4,338 bases of DNA from a virus (taxonomy: Duplodnaviria; Heunggongvirae; Uroviricota; Caudoviricetes), in IMG/VR virus record IMGVR_UViG_2713896773_000008, positions 1 through 4,338 of that record; one strand, 5' to 3'. Made by a program: the position numbers and the translations under genes. Shown here piece by piece: positions 1-4,338 of this stretch (within the stretch, counting starts at the first letter, position 1; each line of letters begins with the position of its first letter). The notes under the pieces were generated by a model. The model searched no databases and was not told where the DNA came from. It saw only the letters and a list, made by a program, of their open reading frames with translations.

Positions 1-414
1 CTGCATCAGGCTGTTTTTTGTTTCTTCCGCCTCCCGGATCCGGAACAGTTTTTCTGCTTCCGTATCCTTCACCCAGGCTGTGCCGTTCCACTTCTGAAAC
101 TCCCCTTCCGGGGATAACCAGGTGATATTTTCCGGTAGAGGTCCGAGTTCAGAAATAAATAACGAGTCGCCGGAAGCCACGTCATAGACGTTTTTTCCCC
201 GATGATCTTCAACGAGATGCCACGATGCCTCATCACTGTTGAAAACAGCCACGAAGCCTGCCGGAATATCTGGCGGTGCAATATAGGTACTGTTTGCTGG
301 CAGACCTGTATGAGGCGGAATATATGCGTCACCTTCACCAATAAATTCATTAGTTCCGGCCAGCAGATTATAAATTTTTATGGTCCGTGGTTGTTCACTC
401 ATTCTGAATGCCAT
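1..414 (-). CDS. tfa: Tail fiber assembly protein (Tfa chaperone), first 138 codons; 3' end runs off the window start
   Basis: Hand translation of the minus strand from the ATG at 414..412 gives [138 protein letters not shown] with no stop before position 1. I recognise this as near-identical to lambda/E. coli prophage Tfa from memory. GAGG at 423..426 sits 8 nt upstream of the ATG, and the ATG overlaps the stf stop (TAATG, 412..416). It is absent from the ORF track only because its stop codon lies outside the window. Confidence 0.9.
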
Positions 415-3275
415 TATGCAAGCCTCACAATGTAGTTAAATGCGATGTTTTTGACGGTGTTTTCCGCGTTACCAGCAGCGTTAACGGTGATGGTGTGTCC
501 ATGTGAGCCAATCGCAACGGAGTGCGTATGAGCACCAATACCGACAGTATGTGCATGTGCGCCTGCGCTTGCAGCAGTGCCGGACAGCGAGTGGGTATGA
601 GCACCATCTGATGATGTCTTCCCTGCATTACGAGTCTGGCCACTACCGCTTGTTGTGCTCATAATCCCCGCGCTTAGATTTGAAATCGCGGTATAACCAT
701 TAGGGAAAATGCTCGTGTTCGTGCCACCAAATGCACCGGAACTCTTGTGTTGGTGCGCACCGGCACTATTTGCGGTCCCGCTAATACTATGGGTATGCGC
801 CCCGGTGTTATTCGTGGATTTGGTTCCGTAATCAAACGACGATGTGGTTTTCGTCCCCAAATCCGTACTGGATGCGCTGGCGCTGTGGGTGTGCGATTTA
901 ATGCCGTCCTGTTCCTGAGACAATACGGCCCGACCACTGGCAGGTTTGCCCTTAATCGTCCAGCCACGCATATCAGGGATCACGCCTGACGGATAAGCGG
1001 CTGCAAGTTTCGGGTAAGCAGATTTGTCAAAAGTCTGCCCCTGCATCAGGGCATAACCAGACGGAACGGTATCTGATGGCCACGGGATTGGTGCGCCGAC
1101 TGGGTAGCTTTCTGGTGGAAGATTTTTCGAGGTATAAACTTCTGCCCAGCCTTCCTCAAAACCATAACCGTCTCTTGAAGAACGGTAGAACAGACCACCA
1201 TTTCTGTAATGCGCCTTCATCTGCAGGGTCCGGCAACTTCCGACTCCGGTATAGAAGTTAACCAGAATATAGCTGTCGCCAGAGCGGGTGACATTGTAAG
1301 CGCCTGATTCGGCATTCCAGGGAACGCCACCATCCGCATCGGCATATGTATCCGTTGCCCTTCTGGCAAAAGCAGCCACATGCGCGGCGGTTAAAGTAAT
1401 ATCTTTGGAACCATCAAATGGAACACCGGATATTTTTCTTGCAGTCTGGAGTTTTGTAGCAGTTGCAGCATTACCAGTGGTGTTCTGATTACCCGTAGTG
1501 TTTACACCTGGAAGGTTAATATTTGCAGAACCGTCGAAAACAACTCCACCGATAGATCTTGCCGTCTGCAATTTCGTGGCTGTACTTGCATTACCATTCA
1601 ATGAACCAGTTAATCCACCTGTAACAGACAACGGACCTGAAACTGTTCCTCCGGTTGTTGGCAGTGCTCCAATATCTGATGGTGTAGGTTTCTGATGTGA
1701 GCTATACATCGTATAAACAACACCATAGGTAACGCTGGAAGGCTTACTCGCTGAATATGTTGGCGAGGTATAAACAGAAACTGACGCATTTGCAGTACAA
1801 TCCCAATGGATATTTACACTCGTCGCATAATTGCCAATCTCAACGTAAATATCATATGTATCGCCGGATGTGTTGATCCAGGCGAAATTCGTTAATCCGA
1901 CGGCTGTACGCTTCCACAAAGCCCCGGTAATTCCTTTGGGGTTTCCATTGCCTGCTCGTAGAACCAGTTCTGAAATGCCTGCCTGATGTGGGGAACCGAC
2001 GTTGTAACCAGCGCCACCAATCAATGCGATGTAAACGATGGAACTCGCTTGTGGCATGGTAACCGTAGCCAGTTTGAACCACCCAGCCCCGCCAGAGAAA
2101 GACATCGTTACTGAATTTAAAGTACCAATATCTTTCGGCGTTAATGTTATATCCGCAGTCAGTGCTTTTCCGTTAACTTTTCGGTTAGATGGCACCCTGC
2201 TATTCGCATTGTCATTGGCTGCTTTAACTGCTTTTGGCGTTGCGGCCAGCGATTCACTGGTGCTATCAACAGCACTGCTAAGTTTCACAACACCTTTAGT
2301 TGTAAGGCTTGCGTCTTCCATCGCAACTGCACCGGCAATCTCTTCAGCACGATCAGCAGCAGCTTCCGCACGGGTCGCAGCGGATTCAGCAGTAGTTTTG
2401 CTCTGAGATGCCGCCGTCGCACTGCCAGCTGCCTCTGTCGCCTTCGTGGATGCTGTCGTGGCGCTGCCTTTCGCTGCTGATGCCTGTCTGCTCGCCTCAT
2501 CTTTTGAAGCAGACGCAGATGATGCCGATGACGCCGCCGAACTGGCGGACGATGCAGCTGCCATTTTTGAGGATTCTGCACTGGTTTCCGGGGCTTTCGC
2601 GTTCGTTTCGGATGTCTTCGCTGCGGATGCAGACCTCGCTGCTGCGCTGGCCTGTTCAGCGGCTTCGCCAGCCTTCGTTGTGGCTGTTGAAGCAGACGAT
2701 GCGGCGCTTTCTGCCGATTTTCCGGCGGCGGTGGCACTGGCTGAGGCCTGCCCGGCACTTGTTGACGCGGCACTGGCAGACGACGCAGCCGCTGTTTTTG
2801 AGCCTGCCGCAGCCGAGGCGCTCTGTCCCGCTGCCGTTTCAGAAGACCTGGCGTTTGTCTCAGACGTCTTTGCCGCCTTCGCGGAATTGCCTGCCGCCGT
2901 TGCCGAGGAAGCGGCACTACTGGCGCTTGATGATGCGTTCGTTTCTGATGATTTCGCTGCCTCTTTTGAGGCCGCCGCATCCCGGGCTGAGGTGGCTGCT
3001 TCTGACGCCTTCGTGGTCGCGGCGGATGCAGAAGTGGCTGCTGATTGTTGTGACGCTGCCGCATTCGTTTCTGACGTTTTCGCCGCACCGGCACTGGTAG
3101 CTGCCGCGCTTTTTGAGGACTCTGCAGCAGCAGCACTTTTTGCTGCTTCACGGGCCTTTGTCGATGCCGTTCCTGCGCTGGAAGACGCTGACTGAGCCGA
3201 CGACGCGGCCTGTCCGGCTGACGTGCTGGCGGCACGTGCTGAGCCTGCAGCATCGGTTAGCCGTCCTGACGGTAC
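414..3275 (-). CDS. stf: Side tail fiber protein (Stf), N-terminally truncated: 953-codon open frame with no start codon; first in-frame ATG at 2564 gives the 716-aa track ORF
   Basis: The minus frame is open from 3275 to the TAA at 414..416. It encodes an Ala/Ser-rich shaft with KTSETNA-type repeats, an ATPKAVK motif, two TATKLQTAR tail-fibre repeats and a His-rich C-terminus ending [18 protein letters not shown], all lambda Stf-like from memory. An in-frame TGA lies at 3276..3278. Codon-by-codon reading found no ATG, GTG or TTG in frame between 3275 and 2564. The sequence upstream of the ATG at 2564 (gcagaatcctcaaaaATG) has no Shine-Dalgarno. Confidence 0.85.
432..900 (-). other. His-rich HxH tip (receptor-binding needle) domain of Stf
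   Basis: Translation contains SHTHS, GAHTHS, GAHQH, GAHTHS, GAHAH, GAHTHS and GSHGHTITV motifs. Comparable HxH motifs coordinate iron in the T4 gp37 fibre tip (established knowledge); I did not model structure here. Confidence 0.7.
1400..1600 (-). repeat. Tandem duplication (120-bp period) encoding two phage tail-fibre repeat units within stf
   Basis: Plus-strand 1441..1478 (gcagtctggagttttgtagcagttgcagcattacc) and 1561..1596 (gccgtctgcaatttcgtggctgtacttgcattacc) are clearly related. They encode [23 protein letters not shown] and [23 protein letters not shown], exactly 40 residues apart. Confidence 0.7.
2599..3083 (-). repeat. Degenerate in-frame repeats in the Ala/Ser-rich Stf shaft (23-bp motif, four copies)
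   Basis: The motif GCrTTyGTyTCnGAyGnyTTyGC occurs on the plus strand at 2599, 2851, 2935 and 3061, with offsets of 252, 84 and 126 bp (all multiples of 3). On the minus strand each encodes A-K-(T/S)-S-E-T-N-A. Confidence 0.6.
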
Positions 3276-3438
3276 TCATCCCCGCGCCAATCTGACGGGC
3301 AATGGTTTCAATTGATGGCCAGCACACACCTTCGTCATTACTGAAATCAGCCAGGCGGGCCATAATTGCCACGCTGGATAATTTCATGCCTGATGCAGCG
3401 CAACCATCCCATACATAGCCGGTTAATTTAGTGCTCAT
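3256..3438 (-). pseudogene. 5' fragment (about 58 codons) of a winged-helix HTH_36-like gene, probably a replication-initiator type, cut off at a deletion junction
   Basis: ATG at 3438..3436 with GAGG at 3445..3448 (6-nt spacer). Translation [60 protein letters not shown] has the typical HTH_36 pattern. From about 3256 the same frame degenerates ([11 protein letters not shown]...) because it is reading the stf shaft out of frame; the track ORF 3148..3438 is that read-through. Confidence 0.5.
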
Positions 3439-3607
3439 GACCGACCTCTATTTCCCTGAATTTACGACGAAACTGTTCGAGCGGACTGAAGCATTCATGC
3501 TCATAGCCTTCGCGGAGGTAGATAACCCGTTGTGTTTCCGGCTCCCAACGAATGACTCTGACGGGCACTCCGTAGTGATCTTTGAACCAGCGGTTAACTT
3601 GTCGCAA
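3428..3607 (-). CDS. Alternative-frame small ORF (59 codons from TTG) with a strong Shine-Dalgarno; either a real small gene or the true 3' half of the frameshifted gene above
   Basis: Minus frame with first base at 3607: TTG at 3607..3605, preceded by AAGGAG (3621..3616) with an 8-nt spacer. Translation [59 protein letters not shown] looks strongly protein-like. Stop TAA at 3430..3428, overlapping the HTH ORF start. The frame is closed upstream by TGA at 3637..3635. Confidence 0.25.
3445..3448 (-). promoter_or_regulatory. Shine-Dalgarno (GAGG) for the HTH-fragment ORF
   Basis: Minus-strand aaatagaggtcggtcATG: GAGG lies 6 nt upstream of the ATG at 3438. Confidence 0.4.
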
Positions 3608-3786
3608 AGGACTGTCTCCTTCTGCCGGTTGAAATCACCCACAGCCCACTCAGCAAAGCTGTGGGTTACAATTTCCCTGTCACCTGGTACATTAACTGCA
3701 TAGCAATACTCCACCTTCGCTTTTCCACCCGGTACAGGAAGCGCAATCAGTTGCGAGCGACGGTAGTGTGTTGTTAAACTATTCAT
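3448..3786 (-). CDS. Hypothetical early-region protein (112-aa ORF); possibly frameshifted, see alternative frame 3428..3607
   Basis: ATG at 3786..3784 overlaps the upstream stop (ATGA, 3783..3786), suggesting translational coupling. The N-terminal half ([57 protein letters not shown]) looks protein-like; the C-terminal half ([45 protein letters not shown]) is Ser-rich and less convincing. Confidence 0.45.
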
Positions 3787-4338
3787 GCGTTAGTTTCTCC
3801 ACAGTCACGACACGCCACGGCGCCCGGAGCTGCACACTCGCGGGCGTCATTACTTTCTGAAATGCAAAAAATTTTGTAGACCAGTGCTGCATGCTCCTGC
3901 AGCTTCGAAATTGAGAGGTACAGCTCGTCGTTAATTGCTGTCTTCTCATGCGGTTCCACTACACCGTCTTCAATTGCTGAACGAATCTGTTTTGAATAAC
4001 TGCCGATCTGTTCAATGACCTCCAGCAGGCGTTGGTTGATATCGGCGTTGTCCACATCCTCGACATCAGGAAGAGACACAAAGACGCCATTTGCAGACTG
4101 CGCCACAGCGTCAGCAATGAAGTGAGTTCCACCAGCACGTTGCAAAATCATTGCCCATCCCAGCGGGAAAATCTGATCGCCATCGGCACGAAGGCGGTTA
4201 AATAATGCGTTCTCTGTTACATCCAGCCAGTCAGCAGCTTCAGCGTAACCCCCCGGCAACGCTGCGATAGTTTTTCTGACAGCTTTCACGTACCACTCAG
4301 GCTGTTTTTCTACTTTCCAGTGATGCTTACCCACGGTT
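3783..4338 (-). CDS. Prophage early regulatory protein, CII-like (resembles phage 186 CII / CP76 family); 5' end at or just beyond the window end
   Basis: Open minus frame from the window end to TGA at 3785..3783, protein-like throughout. The segment [38 protein letters not shown] resembles, from memory, 186 CII QTLRNKLNPEQPHQFTPPELWLLTDLTEDSTLVDGFLAQ. The C-terminus carries C-x9-C-x7-C-x2-C. The family assignment is my inference, not a search result. Confidence 0.55.

Follow-up and report, generated by a model that had tools for sequence, protein, structure and literature searches.

Overlap of ymfM and a DUF4222 gene, a probable same-strand gene pair in the early operon of e14-like lambdoid prophages

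The ymfM locus and its two reading frames

The DNA analyzed here, referred to as the window, is a stretch of 4,338 nucleotides (positions 1 to 4,338 of the IMG/VR virus record IMGVR_UViG_2713896773_000008) and belongs to a remnant e14-like lambdoid prophage whose host is E. coli or a close relative. All of the genes of interest are carried by the minus strand, in the order ymfL, the ymfM/DUF4222 pair, the start of an HTH_36 gene, a deletion junction at approximately 3254-3258, the interior of a tail-fibre gene and the start of a tail-fibre assembly gene. The homology to relatives stops at 3258, where the HTH_36 gene is joined out of frame to the tail-fibre gene interior (window 3148-3438 and 3254-3258), indicating a prophage without replication, lysis and head/tail genes. 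On the minus strand an uninterrupted tail-fibre frame extends from 3275 to 414 (window 414-3275); it encodes a long Ala/Ser-rich repeat region at approximately 2400-3250, as well as a Collar domain and His-rich repeats of the GAHTHS type close to the C-terminus. The tail-fibre assembly gene, which matches Caudo_TAP, begins at 402 and is cut by the edge of the window (1-402, minus strand). The features of the ymfM region are as follows.

3783-4334, minus strand: ymfL, CII-like (CII/CP76-type) early regulator, 183 aa; Pfam Phage_CP76, E 1.5e-13; annotated ymfL in relatives
3797-3800, minus strand: GGAG, putative ymfM Shine-Dalgarno (SD) sequence, with a spacing of 10 nt to the ATG; 40/40 loci examined have a GTGGAGAA-type motif 5' of the start
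3448-3786, minus strand: ymfM ORF, 112 aa, N-terminal domain and overlap-encoded tail; identity to K-12 b1148, phrog_1170
3608-3786, minus strand: coding part of the ymfM N-domain, approximately residues 1-60, the sole coding frame there; pN/pS, AF2, stand-alone homologues
3616-3621, minus strand: AAGGAG, putative DUF4222 SD sequence inside ymfM, 8 nt before the TTG (3607-3605); read from the sequence
3428-3607, minus strand: DUF4222 gene, TTG start, 59 aa, -1 frame relative to ymfM; Pfam PF13973, PGAP annotation in relatives
3448-3607, minus strand: 160 nt, putatively dual-coding, for ymfM tail residues ~61-112 and for DUF4222 residues 1-53; ymfM frame open in 41/41 loci
3436-3450, minus strand: junction TAGAGGTCGGTCATG, where the ymfM stop TAG (3450-3448) falls within the SD of the following gene, with 9 nt to the ATG of that gene (3438-3436); spacing across loci
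3258-3438, minus strand: HTH_36 replication-protein gene, first ~60 codons, truncated by deletion; Pfam HTH_36, homology to relatives ends at 3258

A preliminary description of this DNA had reported a minus-strand, ATG-initiated ORF of 112 aa, which was confirmed at 3786-3448. The encoded protein is identical at 110 of 112 residues to b1148, annotated as 'cell division inhibitor YmfM', and phrog_1170 covers its full length (positions 1-112 of 112, E 3.9e-70); by these matches the ORF is E. coli K-12 ymfM, the SfiC division inhibitor gene of the e14 prophage. K-12 and the window agree at 353 of 359 bases and the neighbours are alike, with ymfL upstream and the HTH replication gene downstream. 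The TGA stop codon of ymfL overlaps the ymfM ATG as ATGA. The start codon of the ymfM-type ORF is ATG in the 40 loci examined, except for two in which it is GTG.

When databases were searched with the 112-aa frame, homologues of 112-117 aa with identities down to 45% were recovered, among which the first ~60 residues are conserved while the remainder drifts. Homologues consisting of the N-domain alone have 59-68 aa, and phrog_20047 is a family of the 63-aa N-half. The AF2 model of the YmfM N-domain (pLDDT 70-82) has three strands and two helices, a moderately confident fold at residues ~10-66, and residues 68-109 are predicted to be disordered (pLDDT <50). In an exhaustive protein search, YmfM residues 19-50 (window ~3637-3732) matched giant repeat proteins weakly and repeatedly (13 stretches in P0214; also P0231, P0234 and others), with which they have a GG-x-V-x-Y-C-Y-A-V-x-N-x-G-D motif in common. 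The likeness is probably that of a shared beta-hairpin motif and not homology.

The second frame lies at -1 (equivalently +2) relative to the ymfM ATG frame. It opens at 3634, following a TGA (3637-3635), and closes with a TAA (3430-3428); the start signal of the form AAGGAG-N8-TTG described previously is present within it (AAGGAG 3621-3616, TTG 3607-3605). The frame matches Pfam PF13973 over profile positions 1-52 of 53 with a score of 69 bits against a cut-off of 27 (E 2.6e-19), and by this match it is a complete Pfam DUF4222 protein. It is also assigned to phrog_1343, and PHROGs keeps phrog_1170, phrog_20047 and phrog_1343 as separate families. A search with the 59-aa frame returned 139 homologues from Escherichia, Salmonella, Klebsiella, Enterobacter, Citrobacter, Kosakonia and other hosts. 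Nearly all are 59-70 aa in length and have a common first residue, beginning MR(Q/E/A)(V/L)NR, which suggests that DUF4222 is a small protein with its own initiation. Homologues are thus known for the full 112-aa frame and, in abundance, for the alternative-frame peptide, so that the refutation proposed in the preliminary description does not apply.

The start of the DUF4222 gene in the window is a weak TTG; across 41 loci the position is occupied by ATG, GTG or TTG. In most loci it is preceded by an SD-like GGAGG or AAGGGG motif, which is weak in the Pantoea type. The AF2 model of the protein (pLDDT 83.6) is a small beta-barrel of the SH3/Tudor/KOW kind. Searches of PDB sequences, NCBIfam and PADLOC gave zero matches for either YmfM or the DUF4222 protein. 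In Kosakonia quasisacchari (L022 71-253) a nonsense codon occurs at DUF4222 residue 46 and the overlapping frame is still open.

An 11-bp hairpin, ACCCACAGCUU...GGGCUGUGGGU, is located at window 3625-3656 (minus strand) in the coding part of the ymfM N-domain, just 5' of the DUF4222 SD. The 101-nt region containing it has a folding z of -2.4. The possibility that a hairpin masks the DUF4222 ribosome-binding site until ymfM is translated was examined and rejected; the window does fold in this manner, but across 22 loci the ribosome-binding site is not more strongly paired than its surroundings (0.51 unpaired as compared to 0.43).

Both frames end beside the next gene. The stop codon of the ymfM frame is situated 9 nt before the following ATG in 40 of 42 loci and 6 nt before it in the remaining two (L028 and L033), whatever gene follows, and it sits within the SD of that gene (TAGAGG or TAAAGGA). 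At least seven different genes were found downstream of ymfM-type ORFs. The second frame had been described as overlapping the ATG of the next gene, and its stop in the window is indeed 8 nt past the ATG at 3438-3436. Across loci the DUF4222 frame enters the next gene by 11-74 nt, giving rise to variable tails and proteins of 59, 61, 70 or 80 aa.

Conservation of the layout and tests for selection in each frame

The conservation of the two-frame layout was evaluated in a sample of one genome per species, chosen by DUF4222 peptide patterns only. The sample yielded 41 genuine loci from about 15 enterobacterial genera, along with one spurious Flavobacterium hit. In each of these 41 loci the counterpart of the ymfM frame has no stop between 170-182 nt upstream of the DUF4222 start and +159..+165, an interval that spans the whole domain. 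The upstream ORF has its own SD and start and encodes 108-114 aa, and at least four diverged types of N-domain can be distinguished. The layout is present in isolated, viable phages too. A second DUF4222 subfamily, ~50% identical and with a GTG start, is overlapped likewise, the outer frame ending either 3 nt short of the next ATG or 11 nt past it. Taken together, the comparison across loci shows conservation of both ORFs and of a separate start signal for each; both are probably translated.

Other arrangements of the two families were also found. Genes encoding the N-domain alone (59-78 aa) lie beside CII-like genes (L049 and L051), and in another locus (L050) the N-domain gene and the DUF4222 gene (2921-3106) are split by a KilA-N/ANT gene; the +1 frame over this stand-alone DUF4222 gene, equivalent to that of ymfM, has five stops. 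The stand-alone DUF4222 gene of Morganella phage IME1369_02 (L058 1480-1671) likewise has a stop in the +1 frame. In Yersinia phage YeP1 (L057 1501-1665) the +1 frame is open without a visible upstream start, making it an ambiguous control. In Entomohabitans (L049 2001-2237) an N-domain ORF of 78 aa crosses the apparent 3' remnant (~15 codons) of a deleted DUF4222 gene and stops 9 nt after the next ATG. In phages mEp460, Stx1a, Stx2a, Stx2c and Hafnia yong2 the overlapping frame has no stop and runs on into Ash (PF10554) and Rha (PF09669). Within these run-on ORFs, annotated as 227-383 aa, the whole DUF4222 gene is contained in a different frame.

mEp460 (L052), 1352-2503: Ash/Rha run-on ORF
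Stx1a (L054), 1484-2506: Ash/Rha run-on ORF
Hafnia yong2 (L056), 1484-2167: Ash/Rha run-on ORF
Stx2a (L059), 1484-2317: Ash/Rha run-on ORF

Amino acid selection was analyzed separately for each frame. In the first half the pN/pS of the ymfM frame is 0.36-0.51. In the overlap it is 0.11-0.35 for the DUF4222 frame and 1.2-2.7 for the ymfM frame, indicating that the selection on the overlap acts on the DUF4222 amino acid sequence. The earlier observation that each frame is protein-like in only one half holds in these terms, the second half of the ymfM frame having a pN/pS above 1 and predicted disorder and the second frame being DUF4222. The few differences between the window and K-12 follow the same partition. 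Six of 359 bases differ, the four in the first half being third-position changes in the ymfM frame and the two in the overlap third-position changes in the DUF4222 frame. A slowdown at the synonymous sites of DUF4222 was sought as a sign of tail function and was absent, the divergence at these sites being no lower than in the N-half. The ymfM tail is therefore kept open without conservation of its residues. The absence of stops is the sole apparent sign that the tail peptide itself is important.

The possibility was considered that the N-domain part of ymfM and the DUF4222 gene are real, and that the 50-codon tail is an accidental run-on without selective meaning. The pattern of substitution and disorder in the tail agrees with such a reading, as does the existence of N-domain proteins that function tail-free elsewhere. 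However, the frame is open in all of the independently sampled loci as well as in the second DUF4222 subfamily, the stand-alone DUF4222 genes do carry stops in the equivalent frame, and the stop that ends the ymfM frame lies at a fixed distance from the next ATG.

The avoidance of stops within the overlap also argues against an accidental tail. For a stop to arise in the ymfM frame, a DUF4222 codon of the form NT(A/G) has to be succeeded by one whose first base is A or G. The chance that the frame would be open in a given locus was calculated to be 0.08 from background codon usage and 0.29 by synonymous permutation within the gene. The joint chance for 21 representatives below 85% nucleotide identity ranged from 1e-13 to 1e-25, a significance that is overstated since the loci are related. 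The other sense frame across the overlap is open in only 1 of 41 loci.

The third bases of the codons at risk were also counted. At L/I/V codons preceding a codon that starts with A, the third base in the overlap was T in 55 cases, C in 33, and A or G in none, whereas in free contexts the counts were T 14, C 65, A 11 and G 26. The stop-forming synonymous codons, 0 of 88 in the overlap, made up 658 of 1375 (48% A/G) in neighbouring genes of the same loci (Fisher P 1.6e-24). T and C alternate freely at the at-risk sites, indicating that these sites have been hit repeatedly but by allowed changes only. A tree-aware simulation, which accounts for relatedness, was carried out on a neighbour-joining tree scaled to free four-fold sites (pairwise difference 0.61). 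The probability that one at-risk site is never A or G at any tip was 0.003 with a kappa of 2, 0.017 with a kappa of 4 and 0.085 with a kappa of 8. For three at-risk sites it was 2e-8 to 6e-4, the weaker end (6e-4) being obtained under strong transition bias. By these counts and simulations chance does not account for the open ymfM frame over DUF4222, indicating that the frame is maintained by selection. An accidental tail is consequently regarded as unlikely.

Frameshifting, indels and a proposed mode of translation

Programmed -1 ribosomal frameshifting could in principle join the ymfM N-domain to DUF4222 in a major or minor product of ~119 residues. The geometry is suitable; the DUF4222 frame is -1 relative to ymfM, it opens upstream of the domain, at 3634, and the internal AAGGAG could stimulate slippage. 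Fusion proteins spanning both families are moreover present in the databases (P0065, P0060 and P0097). The preliminary description had found no obvious slippery heptamer, and in agreement with this there is no X XXY YYZ sequence between 3634 and 3600, nor is there one common to the four N-domain types. The start codon and SD of DUF4222 are conserved, so that frameshifting is not needed for its expression, and its homologues are stand-alone proteins of 59-70 aa. The zero frame remains open for 50 codons past any possible shift site, in contrast to known frameshift sites, which frameshifting would not explain, and both families are also found as separate genes.

The fusions themselves do not lend weight to this mechanism. 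The half-peptides were to be aligned with homologues in search of one protein spanning both, and such one-frame proteins proved to be rare (P0065, with 14 member sequences on one contig; P0060, P0053, P0031 and P0022, with 1-4 each) as compared to clusters of 1295 and 300 members for the two-frame form. The fusion that was examined, P0065, is the result of a +1 G insertion in a G-run of a single read-archive assembly. Frameshifting is considered to be very improbable as the means by which the second frame is expressed. The shift point formerly placed between 3634 and approximately 3600 does not exist as such; nothing shifts, for the ATG frame is open through to 3448 and the second frame has a start of its own at 3607.

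Three explanations had been offered for the two frames, a pseudogene with a ±1 indel, a sequencing indel, or two overlapping small genes, of which the last has been retained. That a single ancestral gene was broken by an indel, or that the assembly contains a sequencing indel, has been rejected as barely credible: the prophage is defective and its adjoining replication gene truncated by a deletion, but the window aligns gap-free to close relatives across 3258-4338, the same layout occurs in about 15 genera and in viable phages, both frames have their own conserved start signals, and each is under purifying selection in its own part.

We therefore favor, with a probability of roughly 0.75, the reading that ymfM and DUF4222 are a pair of overlapping genes on one strand, located in the early rightward operon of e14-like lambdoid prophages. 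Ribosomes would initiate ymfM at the ATG at 3786 by means of its own GGAG, at the ATGA overlap with the ymfL stop, and the product of 112 residues would consist of a folded domain of ~60 residues and a disordered, Ser/Thr/Ala-rich tail of ~50 residues. Other ribosomes would initiate inside ymfM at the AAGGAG-N8-TTG (3607) in the -1 frame and produce the 59-residue DUF4222 beta-barrel protein. Both would terminate beside the ATG of the downstream replication gene. Ribosome-profiling or proteomic evidence for either product was not found in the literature searched.

There are two possible reasons for the openness of the outer frame. The tail may be required as a disordered extension, constrained at the level of composition. 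Alternatively, ribosomes coming from ymfL and ymfM may be carried to the start of the replication gene, a form of translational coupling that would avoid polarity. The stop is always at the start of the next gene and the frame reads on into Ash and Rha in some phages, and the carry-through of ribosomes is for this reason slightly favored over a disordered tail.

The SfiC phenotype, annotation and related systems

The ymfM gene was identified as SfiC, an SOS-inducible division inhibitor, by experiments in K-12 that used a pBAD24 clone of the ORF and a deletion of all of it, and YmfM was reported to inhibit the formation of the FtsZ ring when expressed (Ansari et al., bioRxiv 10.1101/2020.11.19.390815). 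So far as the constructs described in that preprint extend, the locus was treated as one gene and no frame-specific ymfM mutant was made (bioRxiv 10.1101/2020.11.19.390815). A clone of ymfM as annotated should hold the DUF4222 SD, the TTG and 53 of the 59 codons, and the deletion would remove both genes. The clone and the deletion, as described, would thus touch both products, so that crediting SfiC to the 112-aa product is still provisional. It may be, although we regard this as a tentative and somewhat doubtful proposal, that the division block credited to YmfM is caused by, or requires, the embedded DUF4222 protein, and that the ymfM frame past the N-domain is a ribosome track.

The two ORFs have been annotated in conflicting ways. 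In K-12 (L045) only ymfM is annotated, and the DUF4222 ORF is intact but unannotated. In close relatives (L001 and L002) PGAP annotates exactly the 59-aa TTG ORF and leaves ~175 nt after ymfL blank. The record of phage LLS lists the long ORF only, and those of phages vB_EcoS-569R4 and AH07 list DUF4222 only (the phage loci are L055, L060 and L061). Among the records examined, none lists both. The comparative evidence favors annotating both ORFs, which would resolve the conflict.

The match to Pfam DUF4222 (PF13973) and phrog_1343 is full-length, and the start position and the size of 59-70 aa agree with the members of the family. The Pfam description is that of a stand-alone domain of unknown function, whereas here the gene is inside another conserved ORF. 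In the literature, which was searched largely by title, no account was found of a DUF4222 gene within another conserved ORF or of ymfM and DUF4222 as an overlapping pair. Both ORFs are known separately; what appears to be new is their conserved pairing as overlapping genes.

Same-strand overlapping genes are known in phages, for example the spanin pairs Rz/Rz1 of lambda and lysB/lysC of P2. As in ymfM/DUF4222, these genes are on the same strand in different frames with their own starts, the downstream gene beginning inside the upstream one, and in the 'overlapped' layout of P2 lysB/lysC the inner gene also ends past the outer. The proteins are unrelated, however, and ymfM/DUF4222 belongs to the early module beside CII and the replication genes, not to lysis. 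In Rz/Rz1 both peptide sequences are functional, whereas in ymfM/DUF4222 only the openness of the outer frame, and not its sequence, is visibly conserved. The -1 frameshift genes lambda G/GT and dnaX likewise have two frames offset by -1 with protein-like sequence in each. Unlike them, ymfM/DUF4222 has no slippery heptamer, its second frame has its own conserved start, and its zero frame has no early stop.

If DUF4222 is behind the SfiC phenotype, the ymfM frame past the N-domain would be conserved not for its peptide but as a track for ribosomes to the replication gene, and the open frame would be selected for translation itself. The locus provides a statistically strong case of an alternative frame held open over a conserved gene while its own peptide drifts, and as such it may be of use in understanding how overlapping genes arise and why they are kept.
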